Positions 23,649-63,211 are shown, numbered from the stretch's first letter. The stretch is DNA of 64,000 bases from Streptosporangiales bacterium (GCA_009379955.1 WHST01000006.1:3163-67162); one strand, 5' to 3'. A program made the numbers and translations. The notes: generated by a model from the sequence alone, not told the origin.

Positions 23649-26216
23649 GTGGCCGTGGACCCGCGACGCGCACGCGACGAAGCCTTCGCGGTCCTGCGGT
23701 CGGCTGACGCCAACGCAGAAGCCCGGGCAGTGGCGTTGCGCGCACTCGGTCTCACCCAGAAACTCGCCGGTGACGCCCGACGGGCCGAACGCACGTTGCG
23801 ACGATCTGTCGCAACCGCCGCGGACGCACGACTGAGGCAACGCGCCGCGGAGGCGAGGCTGAGTCTCGTCGTGGTCCTCGCTGATCGTGGCGAGTTCCGC
23901 GCGGCACTGGCCGAGGCAGACGTGGCGGCGCGCGCCCTGCGCGGAGTCGACCTCGGTTACCTGCACACTCAGCGTGCGCTCGTGCTGAGCCGAGCCGGCC
24001 GCTACGACGAGGCCCTGTCGACATTCGCACGAGCATTGACCCATCTGCAACGGTTCGCCGAACCAGAGTGGATCTGCCGCGTGCTGTCCAATCGGGGCGC
24101 CCTGCTCGGCTACACGGGTGGCTACCGCGCGGCGGAACGTGATCTGCGTCGCACGATCGAACTCGCGGACCGGCACGGGCTCGAAGTCTTCTCCGGCCAG
24201 GCGCGACACAACCTCGGTTTCATCTCGTTGCGGACGGGCGACGTTCCCACCGCACTGCGCCTGTTCGCCGAGGCCGAGCCCTTCTTCCCCGCCCAGGGGC
24301 ACAACCAGGCCGCTCGGCTGCTGGACGTCGCGGACGCCTACCTCTCGGTCCGGCTGTTCCGCGACGCCCGCGAGCACCTCGAGCACGCCGTCGACGTCCT
24401 CGCCGAGGGCGGGTTCGCGGTCGACGTCGCCGAGGCGCAGGTGCTGCTCGCGCGCACCCACCTGCTCGACCACGCCGCCGGTGCGGCGGCGCGGACGGCC
24501 TCCGAGGCGGCGGCGGAGTTCCGGCGACAGCGGCGACCCGGGTGGACCGCTCTCGCCGACCACCTCGCCCTGTACGCCAGGGTCGAGGCGGGCGAGAGCG
24601 GTGGGGAGCTGCTCGGGGACCTGCGGTCCTCGGCGCGCCGGCTCGGCAGGCGGGGCTGGGCGCACGCCGCGGTCCACAGTCACGTCCTCGCCGGGGCGAT
24701 GGCGCACGAGCTCGGCGACCGCCGGGTCGCCCGCGTCGAGCTCGACCACGCGAGCCGGGCCCGCCATCGCGGACCGATCGCCGTCCGCGCGCCCGCCTGG
24801 TACGCGACCGCCCTGCGTCGCCTCGTCGACGCCGACGAACGGGGCGCGCTGCGCGCCGCTCGAGCCGGGCTGGGCGTGGTCGATGACTACGCCGCCACCC
24901 TCGGCGCCACCGACCTGCGGGTCAGGGCGAGCGGATGGGGCGAGGACCTCGCGACCCTCGGCGTCAGGCTCACCAAGGAGTCCGGAGACGGATGGCGCTA
25001 CCTCACATGGGTCGAACGCTGGCGGGCCAATGCGCTTCGCCGCCCCCCGGTCCGGCCGCCGCACGATCCGCGGCTCGCGCGCGACCTCGCCCAGCTGCGC
25101 CGGGTGACGGCCGACCTCGCGACCTGCTCGGCGCGCGGCGACGACACCCGCCCGTTGACGGCGGAGCAGGTGCGACTCGAGCGCGCGGTGCGCGACCGTA
25201 GCCGCGTCGTCACCGGCCCGTCCGGACGCTCGACGGGTGGCGCGCTCGACCGTGCCGAGCTCCGCGAACTGCTGGGCGACCGCGCACTCGTGGAGCTCGC
25301 CGACCACGACGGAACGCTCGTGGCCGTCACCTTCGCCGCCGGTCGGTGCCGGTTGCACGAGCTCGGCCCGTTCGGCGCGGCGGCGACCGAGATGGACTCG
25401 TTGCGGTTCTCGCTCCACCGGCTGGCACGACGCCACGGCTCGGCCGCGAGCCTCGCCGCCGCCGAGGCGGGCGTCGCGTACTCCGGACGACAGCTCGACG
25501 CGATGCTCCTCGCCCCCCTGCGCGAGGCGATCGGTGACCGTGAGCTGGTCATCGCGCCGAGCGACGCGTTGCACGCCCTCCCCTGGTCCGCCCTCCCGTC
25601 GTTGCGCGACACGACGGTGAGCGTGGTGCCGTCGGTGACGATGTGGGTCTCGGCCACCCGGCGCCTACGGTCGCCCTCGCGCGGTCGTGGCGTCGTCGTC
25701 GTGGCGGGTCCGGGCCTCGACCATTCGGCCGCCGAGGTGCGCGCGGTCGCCAGGCACCATCGCGGGGTGCGGCGCCTGACCGGACGCCGGGCGACCGTCG
25801 CCGCCACCCTCGACGCCATCGACGGTGCGTCGACCGTTCACATCGCGGCCCACGGACGCTTCCGCTTCGACAACCCGCAGTTCTCCGCGCTCGACCTCGA
25901 TGATGGGCCACTCACCGTCTACGACCTGGAACGGATCAGCCGCGCCCCGCGACGACTGGTGCTGTCCGCATGTGACACCGCACTCTCCGCAGTGCATCCG
26001 GGAGACGAGCTCCAAGGAGTCGCAGCGGCTTTCCTGTCGTTGGGAACCTCGACCCTCGTCGCGAGTGTCACACCCGTCGCCGACAACGAGACGAGGACAC
26101 TCATGGGCAGCTTCCACCGCCGGCTGGCCGCGGGCGCATCGCCGGGACGCGCACTCGCCGAGGCCGAAACGACCACGGGCACGCTGGGATTCGTCTGTTT
26201 CGGGGCGAGCGAATAG
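23649..26216 (+). CDS. TPR-repeat / CHAT-domain (caspase-fold) peptidase
   Basis: 855 aa. The N-terminal ~560 aa are helical TPR-like repeats (e.g. LSNRGALLGYTGGYRAAERDLRRTIEL, ARHNLGFISLRTGDVPTALRLF). The C-terminal CHAT domain has the His/Cys dyad contexts TVHIAAHGRF and RLVLSACDTA. Confidence 0.85.
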   Translation: MAVDPRRARDEAFAVLRSADANAEARAVALRALGLTQKLAGDARRAERTLRRSVATAADARLRQRAAEARLSLVVVLADRGEFRAALAEADVAARALRGVDLGYLHTQRALVLSRAGRYDEALSTFARALTHLQRFAEPEWICRVLSNRGALLGYTGGYRAAERDLRRTIELADRHGLEVFSGQARHNLGFISLRTGDVPTALRLFAEAEPFFPAQGHNQAARLLDVADAYLSVRLFRDAREHLEHAVDVLAEGGFAVDVAEAQVLLARTHLLDHAAGAAARTASEAAAEFRRQRRPGWTALADHLALYARVEAGESGGELLGDLRSSARRLGRRGWAHAAVHSHVLAGAMAHELGDRRVARVELDHASRARHRGPIAVRAPAWYATALRRLVDADERGALRAARAGLGVVDDYAATLGATDLRVRASGWGEDLATLGVRLTKESGDGWRYLTWVERWRANALRRPPVRPPHDPRLARDLAQLRRVTADLATCSARGDDTRPLTAEQVRLERAVRDRSRVVTGPSGRSTGGALDRAELRELLGDRALVELADHDGTLVAVTFAAGRCRLHELGPFGAAATEMDSLRFSLHRLARRHGSAASLAAAEAGVAYSGRQLDAMLLAPLREAIGDRELVIAPSDALHALPWSALPSLRDTTVSVVPSVTMWVSATRRLRSPSRGRGVVVVAGPGLDHSAAEVRAVARHHRGVRRLTGRRATVAATLDAIDGASTVHIAAHGRFRFDNPQFSALDLDDGPLTVYDLERISRAPRRLVLSACDTALSAVHPGDELQGVAAAFLSLGTSTLVASVTPVADNETRTLMGSFHRRLAAGASPGRALAEAETTTGTLGFVCFGASE

Positions 26217-33930: not shown

Positions 33931-34192
33931 CGACTCGGTTGTCGCTCGGCTCCCGTGAGCCCGACCTGCACAGACAGCTACTTGCGGGTCGGGTTGGTGA
34001 CATCTGCACAGCATGTCGTCGACGCGTCGCCTTCACCTTAGGGCGACAGCCTGGGAGCAGACAGCAGGCAAGCCCCCAACCACGGGTGGGGAATTCCCCC
34101 GTACCGATTCGGGAGCCCGCGCCATAGTTGTCCGGGCTCGACGCGACAAGTCTGTAGGCGACAGGCATCCACGTTCGCGAAAGGGCCCATCC

Positions 34193-36268
34193 ATGACTGC
34201 GCTCGCGATGGTTCTGGCCTTGGCCGGGGCCGCATGCTATGCGGTCGGCGCGGCACTCCAACACCAGCAGGCCACGAAGACCAGTGCTCACGGTCTTCAC
34301 CCGCGACTGCTCGCGCGACTCGCTCGCCGACCCCGCTGGCTCGCCGGGATCGTCGCCAACCTGGCCGGAGCCGGGCTGCACGTTCTCGCTCTGTCCCTCG
34401 CGCCGCTCGCGTTGATCCAGCCGATCGGCGTGATGACCGTCGCCTTCGCGGTACCGGCGGGCGCGCTGCTCCGCCGCCGCAGGCCGCAGGCGGGCGAGCT
34501 CGTCGCCGCCGGGGCCGTCTCCGCCGGTCTCGCCCTGCTCATGACCACCCTGCGCGCACCCACCGAGGTGCCCGCCCTGCAGTTCCTCGACGTCGTCCCG
34601 CTCGCAGGTGCCGTCGTCGCCGTCCTCGGCATCACCTCGCTCGTCGTGCGTCGCATCGACGGACCCGTACGGACCATCGTGCTGGCCTCGGGAGCCGGCC
34701 TCGCGTTCGGCGTGACGTCCGCGATGCTGCGCCCGATCATGTTCACCTTCACGGCGTCGGGCCTCTCCTTCACCCTCGGCTGGTTCGTGCTCGCGGCGGT
34801 CTCGGTGGCGGGCATCGGCATGCTGCTCCAGCAGACGTCGTTCCAGACCGGACGGCTCGGCCTCGCCATCGCCGTCATCACGGTCGTGGACCCGCTCGCC
34901 GCGATCGGCGTCGGCGCGGGCCTGCTCCACCAGCCGGTGCACGTCGGCAGCGTCACCGCCACCGGCACGGCCGTCCTCCTCGTGCTGGGTGGAGTGGCGC
35001 TGCTGTGCCGCCGGTTTCGCCGGCCCTACCCCACCGGCACCGACGGAACGGCGTCCCTACGCTCGTCGTCGCGCGGACTCCGCGTCCTGATCGGCGCCGA
35101 CACCTACCCGCCGCACGTCAACGGGGCCGCGTACTTCTCGCACCGGCTGGCCCACGGACTGGCGGCGCGCGGACACGAGGTGCACGTGTGCTGCCCGTCG
35201 GCCGACGGCGACGCGACGGTCGAGCGGGACGGACCCGTGTACGTCCACCGGGTGCGGTCGATGCGCACGCCGTTCCACCACTCGTTCCAGGTGGGCTCGC
35301 CGCTGTACGTCCGTACCGATGTCGGACGGGTGCTCGCCGAGGTGCGGCCCGACGTCGTCCACGTGCAGAACCACTTCCTCGTGGGACGGGCGCTGTCGTC
35401 GCTCGCCGGGCGCCGGGACCTGCCGCTTGTGGCGACCAACCACTTCATGCCGGAGAACCTGCTGCCGTACCTCCCGCTGCCCGGTCCGCTCGCCCGCCTG
35501 GTGACCAGGGTCGCGTGGCTCGACCTCGCCCGGGTGTTCGGTCCCGCCCACGCGGTGACGACACCGACTCCCACGGCCGCGCGACTGGTGCGCGCGTCCG
35601 GCATCGGGATGGAGGTGGAGGCCGTCTCGTGCGGCATCGACCTCAGCAGGTTCCACGAGTCGGACACGAGCGGCACCGCGACGGACACGAAGAGGCTCCT
35701 GTTCGTGGGGCGGCTCGACGTCGAGAAGCACATCGACGACATCATCGACGCCCTCCCCACCGTGCGGCGCTCCGTCGACGCCGAGCTGCTGGTCGCCGGC
35801 ATCGGCAACCTCCAGGAGCCGCTCGAACGGCGGGCCCGCGAACGCGGCGTCGCCGAGCACGTGACGTTCCTCGGCTTCGTGCCCGACGAGGACCTGCCGG
35901 CGCTGTACTCGTCCGCCGACGTGTTCTGCATGCCGGGGACGGCGGAGCTGCAGAGCCTCGTGACGCTCGAGGCGATGGCGACGGGCCGCCCGGTGGTGGC
36001 CGCCGACGCGATGGCGCTCCCCCACCTGTGCCAGGACGGCAGGAACGGGTACCTGCACACGCCCAGAGACGTGGCGGAGCTGGCGGAGCACGTGACGACG
36101 ATCCTCACCGACGACGCCCTGCGCGCCCGGATGGGCAAGGAGAGCCTCGCCATCGCCGCGGAGCACGACGAGTCGGCGTCGCTGCGCCGTTTCGAGGAGA
36201 TCTACGCCCGGGTCACCGGGTTCGAGCTGCCTGCGCAGCGCAGCGTACGGGAGCCTGTCGCCGCGTAA
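34193..36268 (+). CDS. fusion protein: ~300-aa polytopic membrane domain (DMT/NIPA-like) + GT4 glycosyltransferase
   Basis: Internal ATG (MTALAMVLALAGAACYAVG...) of ORF 34013..36268. About 9-10 hydrophobic helices are followed by RVLIGADTYPPHVNGAAYF...FVGRLDVEKHIDD...CMPGTAELQSLVTLEAMATGRPVVA, a GT4 E-x7-E type signature. Confidence 0.75.
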   Translation: MTALAMVLALAGAACYAVGAALQHQQATKTSAHGLHPRLLARLARRPRWLAGIVANLAGAGLHVLALSLAPLALIQPIGVMTVAFAVPAGALLRRRRPQAGELVAAGAVSAGLALLMTTLRAPTEVPALQFLDVVPLAGAVVAVLGITSLVVRRIDGPVRTIVLASGAGLAFGVTSAMLRPIMFTFTASGLSFTLGWFVLAAVSVAGIGMLLQQTSFQTGRLGLAIAVITVVDPLAAIGVGAGLLHQPVHVGSVTATGTAVLLVLGGVALLCRRFRRPYPTGTDGTASLRSSSRGLRVLIGADTYPPHVNGAAYFSHRLAHGLAARGHEVHVCCPSADGDATVERDGPVYVHRVRSMRTPFHHSFQVGSPLYVRTDVGRVLAEVRPDVVHVQNHFLVGRALSSLAGRRDLPLVATNHFMPENLLPYLPLPGPLARLVTRVAWLDLARVFGPAHAVTTPTPTAARLVRASGIGMEVEAVSCGIDLSRFHESDTSGTATDTKRLLFVGRLDVEKHIDDIIDALPTVRRSVDAELLVAGIGNLQEPLERRARERGVAEHVTFLGFVPDEDLPALYSSADVFCMPGTAELQSLVTLEAMATGRPVVAADAMALPHLCQDGRNGYLHTPRDVAELAEHVTTILTDDALRARMGKESLAIAAEHDESASLRRFEEIYARVTGFELPAQRSVREPVAA

Positions 36269-36292: not shown

Positions 36293-36327
36293 GCGAACCC
36301 CACCGGTCGAGCAGCGGTGGGGTTCGC
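36293..36327 (+). terminator. hairpin after the GT4 fusion gene
   Basis: GCGAACCCCACCG-gtcgagcag-CGGTGGGGTTCGC, a perfect 13-bp stem. Confidence 0.55.
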
Positions 36328-36445
36328 TACGTTCGGGGGCGGTAACCGGTGGGCGCGCCGGTCACGCAGGGTCGGCGACGCGTCACCGGGCGCCTTGTAC
36401 GGTAGGCGGACACGAGACGACCACGCTGCCGAGACGGAGCTATGC

Positions 36446-37333
36446 ATGAGCAGGTTTGTCGTCGTCGGGGACCTGATGACCGACGTGGTGGCCATGGTCA
36501 TGGGCCCGGTCACGCTCGGCATGGACACCCCCGCGTGGATCGAGAGCTACGGCGGCGGCTCGGGCGCCAACGTGGCCGCCTGGCTCGGCGTCCAGGGCGA
36601 GACCGTCACCTACGTCGCGCGCCGCGGCCCGGACGTGGTCGGGCGCACCAGGGAGATGGAGCTGCTCGGGTACGGCATCGACGCCAGGGTCGTCATGGAC
36701 CAGAGCCGCCCCACGGGCACCTGCATCGTGATCGTCAGCGAGCGCGGTGAGCGCAGCCAGTTCCCCGACCCGGGGGCCAACGCGGCGCTCGCGCCCGAGG
36801 ACATCCCGAGGGACGTCTTCGACCGCGACACCCACCTGCACCTGTCCGGGTACCCGCTCGCCCACGAGGGCGGCCGCGACGGGGCTCTCACCGCCCTCCG
36901 GTACGCGGTCGACGTCGGCGCGACCATCTCGGTCGACACGCCGTCGACCCTCCTGCTCGAGCGCATCGGCGGCGACACCTTCCTCGGCCACGTCGCGGGC
37001 GCGAGCATGCTGCTCGCCAACCACGAGGAGGCGAGTCACCTCTCCGGCGAGCACGACTCGTACGGCGCGGCACGCACCCTGACCAAGCACTTCCCCCACG
37101 TCGTGGTCACCGACGGCGCCGACGGCGCGGTCTGGTGCTCGGCCGGCGAGAACCCCGTGCACGCCCCGGCCGAACGCGTCCGCGTGACCGACCCCACCGG
37201 TGCGGGCGACGCGTTCTGCGCCGGTCTGCTCCCCCGCTGGCTCGCGGGCGCCCACCCCGCCGAGGCCCTGGCCGCCGGAGCGACCGTCGCCGCGCGTGCC
37301 CTCACCCAGGCCGGCGCCCGCCCCGTCGACTGA
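36446..37333 (+). CDS. PfkB-family carbohydrate kinase
   Basis: Internal ATG (MSRFVVVGDLMTD...) of ORF 36317..37333. Motifs GGGSGANVA and DPTGAGDAFCAG are present. Confidence 0.85.
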   Translation: MSRFVVVGDLMTDVVAMVMGPVTLGMDTPAWIESYGGGSGANVAAWLGVQGETVTYVARRGPDVVGRTREMELLGYGIDARVVMDQSRPTGTCIVIVSERGERSQFPDPGANAALAPEDIPRDVFDRDTHLHLSGYPLAHEGGRDGALTALRYAVDVGATISVDTPSTLLLERIGGDTFLGHVAGASMLLANHEEASHLSGEHDSYGAARTLTKHFPHVVVTDGADGAVWCSAGENPVHAPAERVRVTDPTGAGDAFCAGLLPRWLAGAHPAEALAAGATVAARALTQAGARPVD

Positions 37334-37445
37334 GCCGCCCGCCACGCCGGCGTCGGGCGCAGCCGAACCCGTGAGGGCACCCCGGCCGGGTCAGGGCACG
37401 GTGAGGGTGCCCCTCACCTGCCGGCACTGCGTGACGGCATCCCCC

Positions 37446-40328
37446 TCAGCGCCAGGACGTGCGCATCGCGGTAGTCACCGCGAACGGGTCGGCACCGGAC
37501 TGCGAGCGCAGGATGCCCTCGCCCTCGGGGCTGCCGGTGTAGACGGGGTCGCCGCCGCTCACCCAGCGCTGCCACGCCTTCCCGTACGCCTTGGCCCGGC
37601 CCGCGTTCGCGCCGAGCTCGTCGGGGACGCCGTGCCACACCACGGCGGTCGGTCGCAGCGTGCCGCGCAGCAGGCGCACGCCCGCCACGAAGCGGGTGGC
37701 ATCGCCCGTCGGCGCGTCGAGCAGGTAGCGAGGGATGACGTACCTGGGTGTCGCGATCGGGCCGAGCGCCTCGTCGAGTGCCGTGGCGAACCGCGCGGAC
37801 TCCGTCGAGGTCACGCCGTCGAGTGAGAACTGATAGCTGCCGTCGGGCTCGACGTCCCAACGCACCGACTCCGCGCCGCGCGCCGCCAGCTCCGCGGCGC
37901 ACAACCCGTCGGCGACCGCGTAGGCGATGCGGAGGCTGTCGACGGGGCGCGCGGCGGCCGCGACGAGCCCGCCGGCGCGCCATGCTCGGACGATGAGGGC
38001 GATCAGCGAGCCGACCATCGCGAGGACGAGCGCCGCGGCCACCCAGATCAGGCGGAACCGCAGCATCGCCAACGACGCCACGAGCGACACCGCCGCCGCT
38101 ACGGGCGCGCGCCCCGCGCCACGCGGCGGCGAGCCCTTCGCCAGCTGGACCCCCTGCTCGGCCGGGAGCGCCGCGGGGAGGACCGCACTCGACTCCCCCG
38201 ACACCAGGCTGCTCGCGCGCCTGGTCGCGGCCGGCTGCCGAGCGGACCGCACGCGAAGCGTGTGGACGAAGCGGTCGTCGTACGGTTCGCCGACCCGCCA
38301 CAGGTCGGACACCCGCCGCCGGTCGCCGGCGCGGACCAGCATCGCGGCGTTGACCGCCTCGAACTCGATGACGGGCGGCGGTGCGTACGGCGACAGCGCG
38401 ACGTCGACGTGTGCGACCCCGCCGACCACCTCGCCGTGGTCGTCGACAGCGTAGTAACCGTGGTGCTTGCGCACGAACCGACCCCAGTCGGCCGTTCCCT
38501 TCGGGTGGTCTTCGGTCACGCAGACCACGGTCCAGGTGAGCGCGACCTTGTCGGGCCAGGAGGGATCGGTACGCAGCGCGCGGCCGCGGGTCTGCACCAC
38601 CGCGGTCGGCGTCGTCGCCGTCGTGAGGTCGATGACACCGCTCACGCCCCTGGCGTCCCAGCCCTCACCGAGCAGCGCTCTCGTGCCGACGAGCACTCGG
38701 CAGCCGCCGGCCTCGAAGAACGCCGTCACCAGACGCACCCACTGACGGCTCTGCCACCTGCCGGTGACCTCGACCACGCCCACCGCGTCGACCGGCACCG
38801 GATCGAGCTCGATCAACGGCGCGTGCTCGGCGACGTAGGCGTGCAACGCGCGCGCCGTCGCCGCCTCCGCGACGACGGACCTGCCGGTCACCAGCACCGG
38901 ATGGAGGCCGGCGGTCTCCTCGGAGCCGACGAGCCCATCGAGCACCAGGCGCGCGGACCCCGCATCGGTGGCGAGCACGCCGCGGAGCCCGGCCGGCAGC
39001 GTCGCGGTCGCCCGTTCGTGGTCGCACAGCACGAGCATGCGGAAGCGGTCGCCGAGGTTGGTCGACTCCGCGTGGACGATCTGCGCCACCGCGTCGGTCT
39101 TGGCGGCGCTGCGGGCGAGCACCCGGTCGACCGGTGAGCGTCCCGTCCTGATCCCCGCACGGGTCAACCGGTAGCCGATGCTGGGCAACGCCTCCCTGAT
39201 CCGCCCGCAGGCCTCGAGATCGCCCTCGGCGTCGGACTTCGTGAGGCAGCGGCGCACCCAGTCGTCGATGAGGCGTACCCAGTCCTCCGCGGTCGGGCGG
39301 GTGCGGTGCTCCTCGCGTATGCGGGCGCCTTCGGGCAACGCCAGGAGGCCCGCGTGGTACATGCGCAGCGCCGCGCGGGCGGCGTCCGGCGCCTCCTTCT
39401 CGATGCGGTACCACGGCAGCACCGTGCCCTCGCCGGTCGCCCGGCGGACGAACCGCTCGTCGAGCCACCGCAGGAACGGCACCGAACCGAACGACGGATC
39501 GGTGAGGTCGGTGACGAGCTCCACGAACCGCTCGTTCTCCCCCGCCAGCCAGTCGGTCTCCGACGGCGTCGGCGTGGTCAGCCAGACCAGCTCGCCGAAC
39601 GGGGCGAGGCTGCCCTCGCGTACCGCCGCGGGGACCGAGGCGGCGTAGACCGGTGCACCGAACAGCTCCCTGACGAGGCCGGCCTGGTCGGGCGTCAACG
39701 TGTCGGGCGGTGTCGCCGTCAGCCCCAGCACGCGGGCCTGCGGCAGCTCCGCGAGCAGCTCGGCCAGCAGCCGGCCCCAGACCTCGAGCAGGTGGTGGCA
39801 CTCGTCGAGCACGAGGGTCAGCTCGGGCTGTGCCCGAAGTGCCTCGACCAGCGCGCGCCCGTTCGGATGCAGGCGGTCGACGAGCGACTCGGGCTCGCCC
39901 GACGTGACGCCGGGTGCCAGCGCACCCTCCTCGTCGACCTCGTCGTCCGGCTCGAACGTCGCGAGCGACTGGTACGTGAGCACCGTGACGGGCCGGCTCA
40001 GGTCACGGTCGGTGCCCACCTCGGCGGTGGCCGGGGTGAACCGCCGCCACTCCTTCACCCACTGCGCCTGGATCGCGGTGTTGGGCCCGAAGACCACGGT
40101 CGGACACGCCATCCGGCGGGCGTACTCGAGCCCGACGAGCGTCTTGCCCGCACCGGGCGGCAGCACCACCCAGCCGCGCCGACGTCCAGCCGACGTCGCC
40201 GCCGCCAGGGCCTCCAGCGCCTCGCGCTGGTGCCGGCGCAGCGGGACGGCGGGCGCGGTCCTCGCGAACGCCGTGGCCACCGTGAGGTCCGCCGGCGGCG
40301 CCGGGTCAGCGGACAACGGCGCTCTCAC
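37446..40328 (-). CDS. SF2 DEAD/DEAH-box helicase family protein with internal TM hairpin and ~180-aa C-terminal domain
   Basis: 960 aa. Motif I: LPPGAGKTLVG. Motif II: LVLDECHHL. Motif III: LGLTATPP. Motif VI: VQTRGRALR. Hydrophobic segments APVAAAVSLVASLAML and LIWVAAALVLAMVGSLIALIV are encoded at about 37989-38108. Confidence 0.8.
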   Translation of the reverse strand: MRAPLSADPAPPADLTVATAFARTAPAVPLRRHQREALEALAAATSAGRRRGWVVLPPGAGKTLVGLEYARRMACPTVVFGPNTAIQAQWVKEWRRFTPATAEVGTDRDLSRPVTVLTYQSLATFEPDDEVDEEGALAPGVTSGEPESLVDRLHPNGRALVEALRAQPELTLVLDECHHLLEVWGRLLAELLAELPQARVLGLTATPPDTLTPDQAGLVRELFGAPVYAASVPAAVREGSLAPFGELVWLTTPTPSETDWLAGENERFVELVTDLTDPSFGSVPFLRWLDERFVRRATGEGTVLPWYRIEKEAPDAARAALRMYHAGLLALPEGARIREEHRTRPTAEDWVRLIDDWVRRCLTKSDAEGDLEACGRIREALPSIGYRLTRAGIRTGRSPVDRVLARSAAKTDAVAQIVHAESTNLGDRFRMLVLCDHERATATLPAGLRGVLATDAGSARLVLDGLVGSEETAGLHPVLVTGRSVVAEAATARALHAYVAEHAPLIELDPVPVDAVGVVEVTGRWQSRQWVRLVTAFFEAGGCRVLVGTRALLGEGWDARGVSGVIDLTTATTPTAVVQTRGRALRTDPSWPDKVALTWTVVCVTEDHPKGTADWGRFVRKHHGYYAVDDHGEVVGGVAHVDVALSPYAPPPVIEFEAVNAAMLVRAGDRRRVSDLWRVGEPYDDRFVHTLRVRSARQPAATRRASSLVSGESSAVLPAALPAEQGVQLAKGSPPRGAGRAPVAAAVSLVASLAMLRFRLIWVAAALVLAMVGSLIALIVRAWRAGGLVAAAARPVDSLRIAYAVADGLCAAELAARGAESVRWDVEPDGSYQFSLDGVTSTESARFATALDEALGPIATPRYVIPRYLLDAPTGDATRFVAGVRLLRGTLRPTAVVWHGVPDELGANAGRAKAYGKAWQRWVSGGDPVYTGSPEGEGILRSQSGADPFAVTTAMRTSWR

Positions 40329-40923
40329 GGCTGCGGCGCCGCATCAGCCACGCGGCGAGCACCCCACCGAGGAAGCCGAACAGGTGCCCCTGCCACGAGA
40401 CGTACGGCATGCCCGGCAGGACGCCGCTGAGCATGCCGCCGTACAGCAGGAGCACGACGACGCTCACGGCGATCGACCCGACGCTGCGGACGAACAGCCC
40501 GCGGACGAGGAGGAAGCCGAGCAGGCCGAAGATGACCCCGCTCGCACCGACCACCACGGTGCCCGGACTACCCAGGAACCACGCACCGAGGCCACTGGTG
40601 AGGGCGGTGATCACGACGACCCCGAGGAAGCGTGCCGCGTTGACGACGAGGTACGTGGCGAACGCGAGCACCGCGTACGACGTGCTGTTGGCGATGAGGT
40701 GCTCGAACCCGGCGTGCAGGAACGGGGCGAAGAGCAGGCCGTCGAGCCCGCCCAGGTCGCGGGGGTGGATGCCGTAGCCGTCCAGCCTGCCCCCGAGCAC
40801 GGTGTCGACGATCTCCAGCGCCCAGAGCAGGCCGAGCGAGACGCCGACGACCAGCAGGGCACCCGGGGCGCGGTCCGTCCAGTGCTGACTGAGACGGGTG
40901 CGACGAGCGGTGCCGTGGTCCAT
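40306..40923 (-). CDS. rhomboid family intramembrane serine protease
   Basis: Internal ATG (MDHGTARRT...) of ORF 40306..41403. It has 6 TM helices, the catalytic Ser context VVGASGVIFGLLG and the His context WQGHLFGFLGG. Its 3' end overlaps the helicase start by 23 nt. Confidence 0.85.
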   Translation of the reverse strand: MDHGTARRTRLSQHWTDRAPGALLVVGVSLGLLWALEIVDTVLGGRLDGYGIHPRDLGGLDGLLFAPFLHAGFEHLIANSTSYAVLAFATYLVVNAARFLGVVVITALTSGLGAWFLGSPGTVVVGASGVIFGLLGFLLVRGLFVRSVGSIAVSVVVLLLYGGMLSGVLPGMPYVSWQGHLFGFLGGVLAAWLMRRRSRESAVVR

Positions 40924-41052
40924 CGCCCCATTGTCCCCCTCAGGCGGCCGGGTGGGCTCCCCGGACCCCGCGCACAGCACTGTCTCAGCTCTCCGTGACC
41001 TCCTCGGCGGGTCACGTTCGGCGAACGCGCGCCCACCGGCGACAATCTGTGC

Positions 41053-43488
41053 ATGCCACGTCGTCGTTCGAGCACCCCACCCCCACCGGAGGACTTCGAG
41101 GAGCGGATCGTCGACATCGACGTCTCCTCGGAGATGCGCGAGAGCTACCTCGAGTACGCGTACTCGGTGATCTACTCCCGCGCGCTCCCCGACGCCCGCG
41201 ACGGTCTCAAGCCGGTGCAGCGGCGCATCCTCTACCAGATGCGCGAGATGGGCCTGCGTCCCGACCGCGGCCACGTCAAGTGCGGACGCGTCGTCGGCGA
41301 CGTCATGGGCAAGCTGCACCCGCACGGCGACTCCGCCATCTACGACACCCTCGTCCGCATGGCGCAGGCGTTCACGATGCGGCTGCCGCTGGTCGACGGG
41401 CACGGCAACTTCGGCTCACTCGACGACGGACCCGCGGCGTACAGGTACACGGAGTGCCGCCCGGCCGAGCCCGCGGCCGCCATGACCGACGACCTCGACG
41501 AGGACGTCGTCGACTTCCGGCCGAACTACGACGGCCAGCTCACCGAGCCCGAGGTACTGCCCGCGGCCATCCCCAACCTGCTCGTCAACGGCGCCGCCGG
41601 GATCGCGGTCGGCATGGCCACGAACATGCCGCCGCACAACCTCGGCGAGGTCGTCGCCGCGTGCCGGCACCTGATCGACCATCCCGACGCCACCCTCGAC
41701 GACCTGATGCGTTTCGTGCCGGGACCCGACCTGCCGTCCGGCGGCAAGATCGTCGGGCTCGACGGCATCCGCGAAGCGTACGAGTCCGGCCGCGGCACGT
41801 TCCGCATGCGCGCGACGGCACGGGTCGACAACGTCACGCCACGACGGAAGGGCATCGTCGTGACCGAGCTGCCGCTGTCGGTCGGACCGGAGAAGGTCAA
41901 GGAACGCATCGGCGACCTCGTCCGCTCCAAGCGACTGGCCGGCATCCACGACGTGCAGGACTACACCGACCGCACGCAGGGGATGCGCCTGGTCATCGAG
42001 ATCAAGGGCGGCTTCAACCCCGACGCGGTGCTCGAGCAGCTCTACCGGCACACCCAGCTCGAGGACTCGTACGGCATCAACAACGTCACGCTCGTCGACG
42101 GCCAGCCGCGCACCCTCGGGCTGCGCGACATGATCCAGGTGTTCGTCGAGCACCGCTTCGACGTCGTCCGCAGGCGCACCGCGTTCCGGCGCACCAAGCG
42201 CGAGGAACGGCTGCACCTCGTCGACGGCCTGCTCGTCGCACTGCTCGACATCGACGAGGTCATCCAGGTGATCCGCGGCAGCGACAACACCGCGGCCGCC
42301 AAGGAGCGCCTGATGCAGATCTTCGACCTCTCCGAGATCCAGGTGCAGTACATCCTCGACACGCCGCTGCGCCGGCTCACCAGGTTCGACCGACTGGAGC
42401 TGGAGAAGGAGGGCGAGGACCTCAGGCGCGAGATTGCCGAGCTGACCGCCATCCTCGAGTCCGAGGACGAGCTGCGACGCGTGGTCTCGACCGAGCTCGC
42501 CGACGTCGCCAAGCGGTACGCCACCCCCCGGCGCACGGTGCTCCTCGAGTCGGCGGGCCAGCCGGCCGCGACCACCCCGCTCGAGGTCACCGACGACCCG
42601 TGCCTGGTCCTGCTGTCGTCCACGGGCCTGCTCGCCCGCACCACCACCACCGACCCGCTGCCCCGCGAGGGTGGGCGCGCGAAGCACGACGTGCTCACCT
42701 CGTGCGTCACCGCGACCGCACGCGGCGAGGTGGGCGCGGTGACCAACGACGGCCGCCTGGTCAGGATCTCGGTCGTCGACCTGCCCGCGCTGCCTCCGTC
42801 GGCGAGCACCCCCAGCCTGTCCGGCGGGGCACCGCTGCGCGAGTTCGTGTCCCTCGAACGCCGCGAGCGCGTCGTCGGTCTCACGTCACTCGTCGGCGGA
42901 GGCGCGGGGCTCGCCGTCGGCACGGCGCAGGGCATCGTCAAGCGGGTCTCCCCCGACTACCCCGGCAACCGCGACGGATTCGACGTGATCTCGCTCAAGG
43001 ACGGCGACCACGTCGTCGGCGTCGTCGATCTCGCGAGTGACGACGCCGAGCTGTGCTTCGTCACCAGCGACGCGCAGGTCCTCCACTTCCCCGCGTCCGG
43101 TGTCCGTCCGCAGGGACGCGCGGCCGGCGGCATCGCGGGCGTCCGCCTTTCCCCGTCGGCGAAGGTCAGCTGGTTCGGCGCGATCGAGCCGGGCACCGAC
43201 GCCGTCGTGGTGACCATCGCCGGTCCGTCCGACGCCCTGCCGGGCACGGTTCCAGGCGCGGCGAAGGTGACGCCGTTCGACGAGTACCCCGCCAAGGGGC
43301 GCGGCACCGGAGGCGTCCGGTGCCACCGCTTCCTCAAGGGCGAGGACACGCTGCTCGTGGGGTGGGCGGGTGCTGCGCCGCCACGCGCGGCCGCCGCGTC
43401 GGGCGTCGCGGTCGACCTCCCCACCGAGCACGGCCGCCGCGACGGCTCCGGCACGGCGCTGAAGAACGCCGTCGCCGCCATCGGCTGA
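41053..43488 (+). CDS. parC: type IIA topoisomerase subunit A (topoisomerase IV ParC-like / GyrA paralogue)
   Basis: 811 aa reading [30 protein letters not shown]...[17 protein letters not shown], with the catalytic Tyr context AAYRYTECR. The symbol is inferred from the actinobacterial parE-sigma neighbourhood and is not proven. Confidence 0.88.
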
Positions 43489-58576: not shown

Positions 58577-60655
58577 TCAGACGTCGATGCGTGCGCGGTC
58601 GAGCTCGTAGGCGCCCGCGACGATGAACTCGCGACGCGGGGCGACCTCGTTGCCCATCAGCAGCGAGAAGACCTCGTCGGCGGCCGCGGTGTCCTCGACC
58701 TGCACCCGCCGCAGCATGCGGTGCCGCGGGTCCATCGTGGTCTCCGACAGCTGGTCGGCGTCCATCTCGCCGAGGCCCTTGTAGCGCTGGATGGGCTCCT
58801 TCCAGCGGCGGTTCTTCTTCTTGAGCTCGGCCAGCCTGCGGTTCAACTCCGCGTCGGAGTACGTGTAGACGTACTTGTCCTCGCCCTTCTTCGGGCTGGT
58901 GAGCTCGATCCGATGCAGCGGCGGCACGGCCGAGAACACCCGGCCCGCGGACACCAGCGGGGCCATGTACCTGTACAGCAGGGTCAGCAGCAGGGTGCGG
59001 ATGTGCGAGCCGTCGACGTCGGCGTCGCTCATCAGGATCACCCGGCCGTAGCGCGCGGCGTCGAGCTCGAACGTGCGGCCCGAGCCGGCGCCGAGCACCT
59101 GGATGATCGCGGCGCACTCGGCGTTCTTCAGCATGTCGGACATGCTGGCCTTCTGCACGTTCAGGATCTTGCCCCTGATCGGCAGCAGGGCCTGGAACTC
59201 GGAGTTGCGCGCGAGCTTGGCGGTGCCGAGCGCGGAGTCACCCTCGACGATGAACAGCTCGGTGCGGTCGACGTCGGTCGACCGGCAGTCGACGAGCTTC
59301 GCCGGCAGGGCCGAGCTCTCCAGCGCGTTCTTGCGCCGCTGGTTCTCCCGGTGGACGCGGGCGGCGATCCTCGTGCGCGACGCCGACGCGACCTTGTCGA
59401 GGACCGCCTTCGCCTGTGCCTTCTGCCCGCGCTTCGGCGCGACGAAGAACTGCTTGAGCTCCCTGCCCACGACATTGGCCACCACGCGGCTGACGGCGGG
59501 GGTGCCGAGGACCTCCTTCGTCTGCCCCTCGAACTGCGGCTCGGGCAGCCGCACGGTGACGACCGCGGTCAGTCCCTCGAGGATGTCGTCCTTCTGCACG
59601 GCGTCCTCGGACGCGCGCAGCACCTTGGCCGCCCGCAACTGCTCGTTGACGGTCTTGGTGAGCGCACGGTCGAAGCCCTGGAGGTGGGTGCCGCCCTTGG
59701 GTGTCGCCACGATGTTGACGAACGAGCGCACGCAGGTGTCGTAGCCGACGCCCCAGCGCAAGGCGACGTCGACGGTCACCTCGCGCTCGACGTCCTGCGG
59801 GCTCATGTGCCCCTTGTCGTCGAGGACGGGCACGGTCTCGGTGAAGTGACCCATGCCGGACAGCCGCAGCGTGTCGCAGACGCGTTCGTCGCCCGCGAGG
59901 TACTCGCAGTACTCCGCGATACCACCGTCGTGCCGGAACGTCTCCTCGACCGGCTCGGTTCCACGCTCGTCGCGCAGCGTCAGCGTGAGACCGGGCACGA
60001 GGTACGACGTCTGGCGCAGCCTCGTCGACAGGTCGTCGAGGATGACCTCGGAGCCCTTGACGAACACCTGGTGGTCGAACCACCAGCGCACCCGGGTGCC
60101 GGTGGTCTTGCGCGACACCTTGCCCGCCGTCCGCAGGCCCGACCTGGGCGCGAACCCCGCGTCGGGTCCCGGGCCGTCGAACACGCCGGGCACGCCGCGG
60201 TGGAAGCTCAGCGCGTGCGTCCGGCCGCTGCGGTCGACCTCGACGTCGAGGCGCGAGGACAGCGCGTTGACGACCGACGCGCCCACGCCGTGCAGGCCGC
60301 CGGTCGCGGTGTACGAGCCGCCGCCGAACTTGCCGCCGGCGTGGAGGCGGGTGTAGACGAGCTCGAGGCCGGGCAGTTTGGTGCGCGGCTCGATGTCGAC
60401 GGGGATGCCGCGACCGTCGTCGCGCACCTCGATCGACTGGTCGGCATGGAGGACGACGTCGACGCGCGAGCACACGCCCGTCAGCGCCTCGTCGACCGAG
60501 TTGTCGATGATCTCCCACAGGCAGTGCATCAGGCCCCGACCGTCGGTGGAGCCGATGTACATGCCGGGGCGCTTCCGGACCGCCTCGAGGCCCTCGAGCA
60601 CAGAGAGGTGCCGGGCCGTGTACCCGTGGCCACTTTCCTGTGGCAACGCGCTCAC
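58577..60655 (-). CDS. parE: type IIA topoisomerase subunit B (topoisomerase IV ParE-like / GyrB paralogue)
   Basis: Part of ORF 58577..60835. GTG 60655 lies 9 nt after GGGAGG. GHKL ATPase: LEGLEAVRKRPGMYIGST and EIIDNSVDEA. Toprim: ELFIVEGDSALGTAK and LPIRGKILNV. Confidence 0.9.
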   Translation of the reverse strand: MSALPQESGHGYTARHLSVLEGLEAVRKRPGMYIGSTDGRGLMHCLWEIIDNSVDEALTGVCSRVDVVLHADQSIEVRDDGRGIPVDIEPRTKLPGLELVYTRLHAGGKFGGGSYTATGGLHGVGASVVNALSSRLDVEVDRSGRTHALSFHRGVPGVFDGPGPDAGFAPRSGLRTAGKVSRKTTGTRVRWWFDHQVFVKGSEVILDDLSTRLRQTSYLVPGLTLTLRDERGTEPVEETFRHDGGIAEYCEYLAGDERVCDTLRLSGMGHFTETVPVLDDKGHMSPQDVEREVTVDVALRWGVGYDTCVRSFVNIVATPKGGTHLQGFDRALTKTVNEQLRAAKVLRASEDAVQKDDILEGLTAVVTVRLPEPQFEGQTKEVLGTPAVSRVVANVVGRELKQFFVAPKRGQKAQAKAVLDKVASASRTRIAARVHRENQRRKNALESSALPAKLVDCRSTDVDRTELFIVEGDSALGTAKLARNSEFQALLPIRGKILNVQKASMSDMLKNAECAAIIQVLGAGSGRTFELDAARYGRVILMSDADVDGSHIRTLLLTLLYRYMAPLVSAGRVFSAVPPLHRIELTSPKKGEDKYVYTYSDAELNRRLAELKKKNRRWKEPIQRYKGLGEMDADQLSETTMDPRHRMLRRVQVEDTAAADEVFSLLMGNEVAPRREFIVAGAYELDRARIDV

Positions 60656-60853
60656 GCTTCGCAACCTCCCTCGATCAATCCGGTACCGGCAGGGTAGCGT
60701 CACAGCTCGGTGGGTCAGTGTCGCCTCGCCGCACCGCCAGGAACCGACCCGGATCCCGTGGCGTCGGTCATACCCGGGAACGAATCCCTGTGATGGGATG
60801 TTGGAACCGGTGATGGCAAACGCAAGCAGGGACACCAGTGCAAGGGGGACCGC

Positions 60854-61564: not shown

Positions 61565-62965
61565 TCAGTCGAGGTAGTCGCGCAGCACCTGCGAGCGCGA
61601 CGGGTGCCGCAGCTTCGACATGGTCTTCGACTCGATCTGCCTGATCCGCTCGCGGGTGACGCCGTAGACCTTGCCGATCTCGTCGAGGGTCTTGGGCTGG
61701 CCGTCGGTGAGGCCGAAGCGCATCGACACCACGCCCGCCTCCCGCTCCGACAGCGTGTCGAGCACCGAGTGCAGCTGCTCCTGGAGCAGCGTGTGGCTCA
61801 CCGCCTCGGCGGGCTGCACGGCCTCGGAGTCCTCGATCAGGTCACCGAACTCGCTGTCGCCGTCCTCACCGAGCGGGGTGTGCAGCGAGATCGGCTCGCG
61901 GCCGTACTTCTGCACCTCGACGACCTTCTCCGGGGTCATGTCGAGCTCGATCGCCAGCTCTTCCGGGCTCGGCTCGCGACCGAGGTCCTGCAGCATCTGC
62001 CGCTGGACACGTGCCAGCTTGTTGATGACCTCGACCATGTGCACCGGGATGCGGATGGTGCGTGCCTGGTCGGCCATGGCCCGGGTGATGGCCTGCCTGA
62101 TCCACCACGTGGCGTACGTCGAGAACTTGTAGCCCTTGGTGTAGTCGAACTTCTCGACCGCCCTGATCAGGCCGAGGTTGCCCTCCTGGATCAGGTCGAG
62201 GAAGAGCATGCCGCGACCGGTGTAGCGCTTGGCGAGCGACACCACCAGCCGCAGGTTGGCCTCGAGGAGGTGGTTCTTCGCCCGATGGCCGTCCTCGGCG
62301 ATCCACTCCATCTCGCGGCGCGGCTTCGCGGTGAGGCGGCCGTCCGCGCCCAGCTTCTCCTCGGCGAACAGGCCCGCCTCGATGCGCTTGGCGAGCTCGA
62401 CCTCCTGCTCGGCGTTGAGCAGGGAGACCTTGCCGATCTGCTTGAGGTAGTCCTTGACCGGGTCGGCCGTCGCACCCGCGACGACGACCTGCGCCGCCGG
62501 TGCGTCGTCGTCGGTGTCGCTCAGGACGAAGGAGTCCTCGCCCTCGCCCGCCTTCGGGTCGGCGCGCTTGGCCTTGGGTGCGTCGACGACCGACTCGTCG
62601 TCGGTGGCGTCGTCGGCCTCGACCTCGGCGGGGGCGTCGTCGGTCGCTTCGGCGTTCGCGTCGTCACCGCTGAGCTCGACGTCGTCTGTCGGCTCGCCGT
62701 CGTCGAGATCGGTCGCATCGGGCTCCTCGGCCGAGTCGTCGGTGCCCTTGGCCGCCTTCGTCGTGTCCTTCGTCTTCTTGCCCTTCGACTGGCCGCGTAC
62801 TGACCCTTCCCCCGTGGGCTTCGTGCCGGCCTTCGACCTGCCGTTGGACGCGCCGTTCGCCTTCGCCCGCGGCGTGGCGGCCGCCGGCTTCGTCGCGGAC
62901 TCGGACTCCTCTGCCTGCGTGGACGCCGTGGCCGTGCGCTTCGATGTGGACGCGGCGCTTGGCAT
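61565..62965 (-). CDS. rpoD: principal (group 1) RNA polymerase sigma factor, SigA/HrdB/RpoD
   Basis: Internal ATG of ORF 61565..63118, preceded by GAGGAGGAAG. It has a Lys/Asp/Glu-rich N-terminal extension. Conserved regions: [70 protein letters not shown] and [30 protein letters not shown]. Confidence 0.95.
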
Positions 62966-63211
62966 GGTGGTCACTTCCTCCTCATTGGCGGCATGGGCGC
63001 CCGCACAGGTGAGCCCCCTGAGCGGGTGACGATCGCCCAGTCGCCCTGGGCAAGGCAGGCCTCTGAGAGGCAAGAGCAGGCCGCACTGGGCGCTGCACAT
63101 AGATCTCCATTGTGTCACGCCCTCTCCAGGACCGGGGGGTGCGGGGGAACACGAACCGGGCGATCGAAGTCACCAGCGGACTCCCCGATCACCTCCCCCG
63201 TCGTGCCTCGA

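Follow-up and report, generated by a model that had tools for sequence, protein, structure and literature searches.

In a 64,000-nucleotide stretch of DNA from Streptosporangiales bacterium (GCA_009379955.1, WHST01000006.1:3163-67162; referred to as the window, with positions counted from its first letter), a gene for a rhomboid intramembrane protease stands in tandem with a gene for a superfamily 2 (SF2) helicase that carries a hydrophobic helical hairpin. We conclude, with a probability of roughly 0.7, that these are two functionally independent housekeeping genes whose tandem arrangement, probably with co-transcription, exists only in the lineage of the window (Acidothermales/Streptosporangiales-like actinomycetes). 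The helicase would then be a permanently membrane-tethered nucleic-acid motor, most likely a translocase on double-stranded DNA (dsDNA) if the analogy with XPB and Hef holds. Its hairpin would insert from the cytoplasmic face, with only a very short turn on the outer side of the membrane, and the motor and the C-terminal domain would stay in the cytoplasm and pack as one assembly. The two genes and their junction are as follows (aa, amino acids; ORF, open reading frame).

40306..40923, minus strand: rhomboid gene; 205 aa from the ATG at 40923, with the in-frame ORF reaching further upstream; Pfam PF01694, E 4.4e-23
37446..40328, minus strand: SF2 (ResIII/XPB-like) helicase gene; 960 aa as longest ORF; Pfam ResIII, DEAD and Helicase_C
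40280..40328, minus strand: junction between rhomboid and helicase; TGA stop of the rhomboid at 40306-40308; helicase may start at GTG 40328, TTG 40316 or GTG 40280

Conservation of the rhomboid-helicase pairing

The original prediction was that the rhomboid controls the release of the helicase, or of its C-terminal domain, by intramembrane proteolysis, and absence of the pairing from related genomes had been set in advance as the outcome that would speak against it. Scanning one genome per species gave 568 loci with relatives of the helicase, the best 80 of which were kept for neighbourhood analysis (75 with at least 1 kb of upstream sequence, 60 with 5 kb or more on each side). Within 8 kb of the helicase gene, a rhomboid gene was found at one of the 80 loci (one of the 75 with at least 1 kb upstream), namely L001, a metagenome-assembled genome (MAG) of Acidothermales whose helicase is 71% identical to that of the window. 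When the rhomboid, the topoisomerase, the PfkB-family kinase and the glycosyltransferase encoded together in the window were used as tblastn queries (E ≤ 1e-5), the first three were found only at L001, and the glycosyltransferase was not, as the L001 contig ends inside the PfkB gene. A phmmer search (E ≤ 10) of 5259 flanking ORFs returned the same single rhomboid. All-against-all comparison of these ORFs revealed no neighbour family at more than 16 of the 80 loci; the helicase neighbours that are shared represent synteny at the level of single lineages, for example rpe and riboflavin genes in Nocardioides.

The pair was also present at L081, a Streptosporangiales MAG (72% identical), where genes for LacI, topoisomerase IV subunit A, the rhomboid, the helicase, PfkB, the glycosyltransferase and a sensor kinase are collinear with the window; the block at L001 is likewise collinear. 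Two further close relatives (~71% identical) may keep the pair too, as the longest contigs given for their helicase and rhomboid matches are equal in length. Rhomboid-helicase adjacency was confined to relatives of at least 70% identity that have the collinear block, and at ~60% identity (Tenggerimyces, Flindersiella, Solicola) there was no rhomboid near the helicase. Conversely, none of four loci with rhomboid orthologues of 47-63% identity (Nocardioides korecus, Bailinhaonella and two large MAG contigs) had an adjacent helicase or topoisomerase. Because the whole seven-gene block is collinear wherever the pair is kept, its persistence is put down to short divergence and not to selection acting on it; the pair survives only where the region has not yet been rearranged. 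The adjacency across lineages by which a protease-substrate gene pair would be recognized is not what these loci display.

The 23-nucleotide (nt) overlap reported for the two genes is real for the longest helicase ORF, which begins at GTG 40328, and the true start of the helicase is uncertain. The equivalent of TTG 40316 is the called start of a 94%-identical homologue (P0001), which would shorten the overlap to 11 nt, and a start at GTG 40280 would replace it with a 25-nt gap. In the relative at L081, the corresponding gap is 46 nt. All of the candidate starts, whether they produce an overlap or a gap, are compatible with co-transcription with the rhomboid. No terminator-like site was seen at 37200-41150, where promoter and terminator scans were uninformative (local GC content 73-76%). 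Given their close spacing on the same strand and the lack of a terminator-like site between them, the two genes are likely co-transcribed in the lineage of the window.

The hydrophobic hairpin and domain architecture of the helicase

The helicase is divided into the following regions.

38529..40244, minus strand: motor region, aa 29-600; RecA1, helical insertion (~aa 255-430) and RecA2, with motifs I-VI
39795..39806, minus strand: DECH, motif II/Walker B, aa 175-178; D175, E176 and H178 invariant and C177 at ≥90% in 121 sequences
38124..38528, minus strand: family-specific domain after RecA2, aa 601-735; HPKG..DW.RFVRKH..GVAHVD..SPYAPPP
37953..38108, minus strand: two-helix hydrophobic hairpin, aa 741-792, predicted to anchor the protein in the membrane; helices 742-755 and 760-792 joined by an RFR turn
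37449..37937, minus strand: family-specific C-terminal alpha/beta domain, aa 798-960; predicted local distance difference test score (pLDDT) of the isolated model 89.3

The prediction of two hydrophobic helices at nt 37989-38108 (aa 741-780) agrees well with the Kyte-Doolittle profile, in which aa 743-793 is the sole segment of the helicase above 1.6, with a peak of 2.64 at residue 761. Helix 2 is a run of 21 apolar residues without a break, and its mean hydropathy over 19 residues is 2.64. We screened the 82-aa linker that joins the motor to the C-terminal domain in 121 homologues for strongly apolar 17-aa segments, using an apolar-energy scale with crude thresholds. Two such segments were found in 76 of the 121 sequences, one in 35 (including the protein of the window) and none in 10. 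The frequency of linkers with at least one segment (111/121, ~90%) compared to that for the preceding 718 aa (7/121) is far beyond chance expectation. The hairpin is the least conserved stretch of the helicase, and AlphaFold confidence is lowest at its helices 742-755 and 760-792 (~58-61 vs >90 elsewhere). In three homologues (P0055, P0062 from Solicola gregarius, and P0113) it is cleanly deleted: ~45 aa are missing, the linker measures 37 instead of 82 aa, and both flanking domains are kept. These features indicate that the hairpin is not part of a buried core, and the helicase is very likely tethered to the membrane through it, as had been proposed. A Streptomyces subgroup (P0066, P0081, P0095, P0117) has an Ala/Gly-rich, weakly hydrophobic version of the hairpin; within the family, the membrane anchor was lost or became weaker on more than one occasion.

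Topology was judged from the 77 sequences with two apolar segments. Their loop has a median length of 3 residues and is nearly uncharged, with 0.19 Lys+Arg per 12 residues compared to 2.19 in the N-terminal flank and 3.06 in the C-terminal flank. Because of these positive flanks and the short, uncharged loop, the hairpin fits an N-in/C-in anchor that would leave both the motor and the C-terminal domain in the cytoplasm. As ~90% of the 121 homologues carry the hairpin, including members from Bacteroidota and Bacillota, it is a family trait and independent of any rhomboid.

The C-terminal domain folds confidently by itself in the AlphaFold model of aa 798-960, with the alpha/beta fold and score listed above. 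It had been described as a domain with no recognizable motif, and at 160 aa it indeed returned no Pfam match at E ≤ 10 and no significant Foldseek neighbour in the PDB (best E 0.28) or BFVD (best E 0.11). When 1.84 billion proteins were searched with a profile of the domain, 966 cluster representatives matched. Nearly all of the 150 matches listed ended at, or within a few residues of, the C-terminus of the protein, with a few ending up to ~45 residues upstream. The full-length proteins matched were 730-1070 aa long, and on this account belong to the same helicase family. The last strand (951-959) had a pLDDT of 86-93 in the full-length model and below 50 in the isolated domain; as it is confident only with the motor present, the C-terminal domain is predicted to contact the motor core. 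It appears to dock on the motor, on the same side of the membrane, and being docked it does not look like a releasable module.

The motor scored 66 bits with Pfam ResIII and 24.9 bits with Helicase_C. Motifs were found at 57-63 (PPGAGKT), 82-86 (PNTAI), 175-179 (DECHH), 204-208 (TATPP), 548-559 (GTRALLGEGWDA) and 579-586 (QTRGRALR), and motifs I-VI are intact and almost fully invariant over the 121 family members, which bears out the earlier description of a 960-aa helicase with a complete motif set. Judged by these motifs, the protein is an SF2 ATPase with two RecA lobes. The full-length AlphaFold2 model, built on the 121-sequence alignment, had a pLDDT of 90.9 and a predicted template modelling score (pTM) of 0.89, and its nearest folds in the PDB were XPB, Hef, FANCM and RIG-I-like helicases (Foldseek E 2e-14 to 1e-10). 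With XPB/Rad25 and the Hef/FANCM/RIG-I-like translocases it shares the two-RecA motor, the helical insertion between the lobes and the DExH-type motif II; unlike them, it has a 135-aa post-motor domain, the membrane hairpin and the 160-aa C-terminal domain. In the post-motor domain (aa 601-735), the columns H608, P609, G611, R617, K621, H622, G637, V638 and S646 are invariant. Sequence profiles reached XPB/Rad25 and RadD in the N-terminal lobe only. An identity as XPB itself was rejected, since NF045503 scored 56.5 bits against a cutoff of 610 and the match was confined to residues 25-126. No NCBIfam model reached its cutoff on the helicase, and Pfam at E ≤ 10 returned no match for the three non-motor regions. 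The analogy with XPB and Hef makes dsDNA translocation the most likely activity of the helicase.

The family is abundant in Actinomycetota (1313 matches among the candidates scored) and extends to other phyla. In tblastn of plasmid records, a 896-aa homologue from Chondrinema litorale (Bacteroidota; plasmid NZ_CP111050.1, L086:5896-8586) aligned end to end with aa 31-960 at 24% identity (E 8e-61). In the homologue from Paenibacillus cellulositrophicus (Bacillota; 940 aa, on a megaplasmid, L090:3924-6746), the motor is accompanied by a pair of hydrophobic helices (VKAVLIFALVLGLETFF, WFKFGIAAVLAAVCASPWIY), and the profile of the C-terminal domain finds its match at E 1e-14; a Chloroflexia MAG (L080) encodes a 41%-identical helicase. 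All three proteins have the motor, the two-helix hairpin and the C-terminal domain. There was no annotated rhomboid within 5-6 kb on either side of the Chondrinema and Paenibacillus genes. The arrangement of motor, hairpin and C-terminal domain is old and independent of rhomboids.

The rhomboid and the alternatives to functional independence

The rhomboid gene is intact and scored 82.5 bits with Pfam Rhomboid PF01694 (cutoff 22.6) over residues 63-196. Homologues of ~200 aa number more than 6000; conservation was judged on 23 of 46-77% identity. Its catalytic features are the following (TM, transmembrane helix).

40537..40548, minus strand: GASG motif with catalytic Ser128 (TM4); G126, S128 and G129 invariant and A127 nearly so in homologues
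40384..40386, minus strand: catalytic His180 (TM6, WQGHLFGFLGG); nearly invariant in homologues
40687..40701, minus strand: TM2 H75-x3-N79 motif (oxyanion-hole region); H75 and N79 invariant in homologues

The sole exception at His180 is P0363, whose C-terminal ~30 residues diverge wholly (possibly by a frameshift). In a profile search of PDB sequences, GASG, HLFGFLGG and HxxxN aligned with GLSG, AHIAG and HILFN of E. coli GlpG; the alignment covers profile positions 65-197, including the TM2, TM4 and TM6 motifs, and one further hydrophobic segment lies N-terminal to it. By hydropathy only, segments were placed at 18-44, 84-118, 117-149 and 137-173. The window's rhomboid resembles GlpG and Providencia stuartii AarA (MEROPS S54) in its serine within GxSG, its histidine in TM6 and the HxxxN motif of TM2, and also in its size of ~200 aa with no extra domains. 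In sequence it is only distantly related to GlpG (profile E 0.002, no phmmer match). An identity as a rhombosortase was rejected (TIGR03902 27.3 bits, cutoff 84). Because the TM2, TM4 and TM6 motifs are all present, the upstream gene product is by its motifs an ordinary, catalytically competent short rhomboid.

Some observations weigh against the independence of the two genes, or against the permanent tether. The genes follow each other closely in the same orientation and no terminator-like site separates them, so that an operon is likely, and genes of one operon often have linked functions. In the window's protein, helix 1 of the hairpin is only marginally hydrophobic (summed apolar energy +3.4 kcal/mol vs –2.3 for helix 2). 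The packing agrees with a reading in which the rhomboid cleaves the hairpin and frees the motor or the C-terminal domain, as a lineage-restricted function acquired recently together with operon formation. In its favour, the genes share a strand in the window, L001 and L081, where they overlap or lie at most 46 nt apart; the rhomboid has all its catalytic residues, and the hydrophobic hairpin of the helicase is real. Polytopic proteins can be substrates of rhomboids, as MgtE is for B. subtilis YqgP. The rhomboid recognition motif (small P1, hydrophobic P4 and P2') does not discriminate here, as it would fit nearly any Ala-rich helix. We nevertheless consider such cleavage very unlikely, since the pair is absent from 79 of the 80 loci and lost at ~60% identity, yet the hairpin persists, and orthologous rhomboids occur without an adjacent helicase. 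Where the pair is kept, the collinear seven-gene block gives no sign of selection on it. The outer loop of ~3 residues and the apparent docking of the C-terminal domain on the motor also argue against a releasable part. The architecture that this idea implies is that of SREBP, a nucleic-acid-binding protein tethered by a hairpin and freed by proteases, with two membrane helices and both soluble domains cytoplasmic. The luminal loop of SREBP is long enough for a site-1 cut that precedes the intramembrane cut, whereas the helicase has the ~3-residue loop and no conserved protease partner. About as improbable, in our view, is the full switch, in which the rhomboid of the window's lineage cuts the hairpin so that a DNA translocase alternates between tethered and free states by intramembrane proteolysis. 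That the helicase family, spread over at least four phyla, performs an undescribed membrane-proximal DNA transaction is more probable than this switch.

Other alternatives concern the hairpin itself. The helix pair might serve not as an anchor but as a protein-protein interface (for example, an oligomerization bundle) or as a buried element of a soluble enzyme. The shortness of helix 1 in the window (~16 residues, marginally apolar) is in keeping with this, as are the weakly hydrophobic versions in several Streptomyces and the three members without the region, from which it follows that the enzyme can exist without a strong anchor. We regard this as unlikely, because helix 2 is an uninterrupted run of 21 apolar residues with a mean hydropathy of 2.64, the hairpin sequence is unconstrained save for its hydrophobicity, and its Arg/Lys-rich flanks and uncharged loop form a positive-inside pattern; AlphaFold confidence is lowest at the hairpin, unlike in a packed core. 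If only helix 2 spanned the membrane, the helicase would be a single-pass N-in/C-out protein with an extracytoplasmic C-terminal domain, acting as a sensor coupled to the cytoplasmic motor. One clear apolar segment in 35 of the 121 homologues, the window's protein included, is what this arrangement would produce (the threshold being crude). However, members without the hairpin keep a well-conserved C-terminal domain, which in them must therefore be cytoplasmic. The pTM of 0.89 for the full-length model, a terminal strand that is ordered only with the motor, and positive charge on both flanks further make the single-pass arrangement the least probable of the readings considered here. We thus retain the two independent genes, with the helicase held at the membrane by an N-in/C-in hairpin, as the favoured reading.

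A published and unexplained link between a rhomboid and type II topoisomerases may bear on the rhomboid of the window, as a lead. Deletion of the Mycobacterium smegmatis rhomboid MSMEG_4904 (the Rv1337 orthologue) makes cells hypersensitive to two gyrase inhibitors, ciprofloxacin and novobiocin (PMC3448690). MSMEG_4904 is an actinobacterial rhomboid of the 6-TM class; that of the window is likewise actinobacterial, and its gene is divergent from a parC-like gene. The mycobacterial rhomboid gene adjoins murI (PMC2989971), and the genomic context in the window differs from this setting.

Neighbouring genes and the wider helicase family

The genes that flank the pair are listed here.

41053..43488, plus strand: gyrA/parC-like type IIA topoisomerase subunit A, divergent neighbour; Pfam DNA_topoisoIV E 1.7e-152; NCBIfam NF004044 862.9 bits vs cutoff 654
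36317..37333, plus strand: PfkB-family sugar kinase, convergent downstream neighbour; Pfam PfkB E 8.9e-42

The pair had been placed next to parC- and parE-like genes. The parC-like gene is indeed adjacent, in divergent orientation, and the parE/gyrB-like gene (58577-60835, minus strand) is 17.6 kb away, beside a gene for an hrdB-like sigma factor. Measured from the parC-like gene, the parE/gyrB-like gene and the gene for the hrdB-like principal sigma factor (61565-63118, minus strand) are at a distance of 17-23 kb, so that the genes for the two topoisomerase subunits are separated rather than adjacent. The adjacency of rhomboid and parC-like genes was not conserved outside the close clade, either at the 80 helicase loci or at the four loci of rhomboid orthologues. 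The hint of a role in chromosome segregation rested on this adjacency and is not supported. In the divergent intergenic region (40923-41053), ~130 bp separate the start of the rhomboid gene from that of the parC-like gene on the opposite strand, and because of this short distance the two probably share a regulatory region.

Beyond the PfkB gene, the glycosyltransferase of the window is encoded at 34013-36268 (plus strand) by a single 751-aa ORF, which combines a DMT/EamA-like membrane domain (aa 65-325; NCBIfam NF038012, 49.6 bits vs cutoff 50) with a GT4 glycosyltransferase (aa 369-734). In L081, whose block is collinear, gene calling gave just a glycosyltransferase of 423 aa and left ~1 kb empty. 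The ORF is either a genuine transporter-glycosyltransferase fusion or a start-codon artefact. Elsewhere in the window, 23649-26216 (plus strand) encodes a protein of 855 aa in which TPR repeats are combined with a CHAT (caspase-like) domain at the C-terminus; the rhomboid orthologue in L088 likewise has a CHAT protein nearby (1523-2431), probably by coincidence.

Several other roles and origins for the helicase were considered and set aside. Upstream of 77 helicase genes or in the window, neither the actinobacterial SOS box (TCGAAC-N4-GTTCGA, ≤2 mismatches; 2 loci) nor a RecA-independent promoter motif (1 locus) was recurrent, which disfavours regulation by DNA damage. Membership in anti-phage defence was rejected, as PADLOC matches were limited to short stretches of the ATPase lobes (the best was PbeA, residues 25-245, 44.7 bits, with a weaker match at 553-603), with no conserved neighbours and no close plasmid or phage relatives. 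The PHROGs match was to a generic 'DNA helicase' only. An origin in mobile elements was also rejected, because 72,556 plasmids and 50,697 phage records held only chromosomal-type homologues of 24-26% identity. MT836806.1 and MT838455.1 ('Bacteriophage sp.', human faecal) are short, unannotated contigs with 24-26%-identical homologues of the helicase core (aa 54-678), and may be misassigned bacterial fragments.

A search of the literature on rhomboids with helicases, membrane-anchored helicases or this helicase family found nothing relevant, and the names of family members in source databases are generic ('DEAD/DEAH box helicase family protein', 'superfamily II DNA or RNA helicase'). Rhomboids and SF2 helicases are kinds of protein already known; the helicase family itself is uncharacterized, and consists of XPB/Hef-like motors that are very likely membrane-tethered. 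That a coupled rhomboid-helicase system is unsupported removes a tempting story about this locus. What it leaves is about a thousand clusters (at 50% identity) of SF2 ATPases that share the motor, the hairpin and a C-terminal domain with neither a Pfam family nor a Foldseek neighbour. They are found in Actinomycetota, Chloroflexota, Bacteroidota and Bacillota, in core chromosomal contexts. To our knowledge, SF2 helicases that are integral to the membrane are uncommon, which makes this family a reasonable target for localization and deletion studies.

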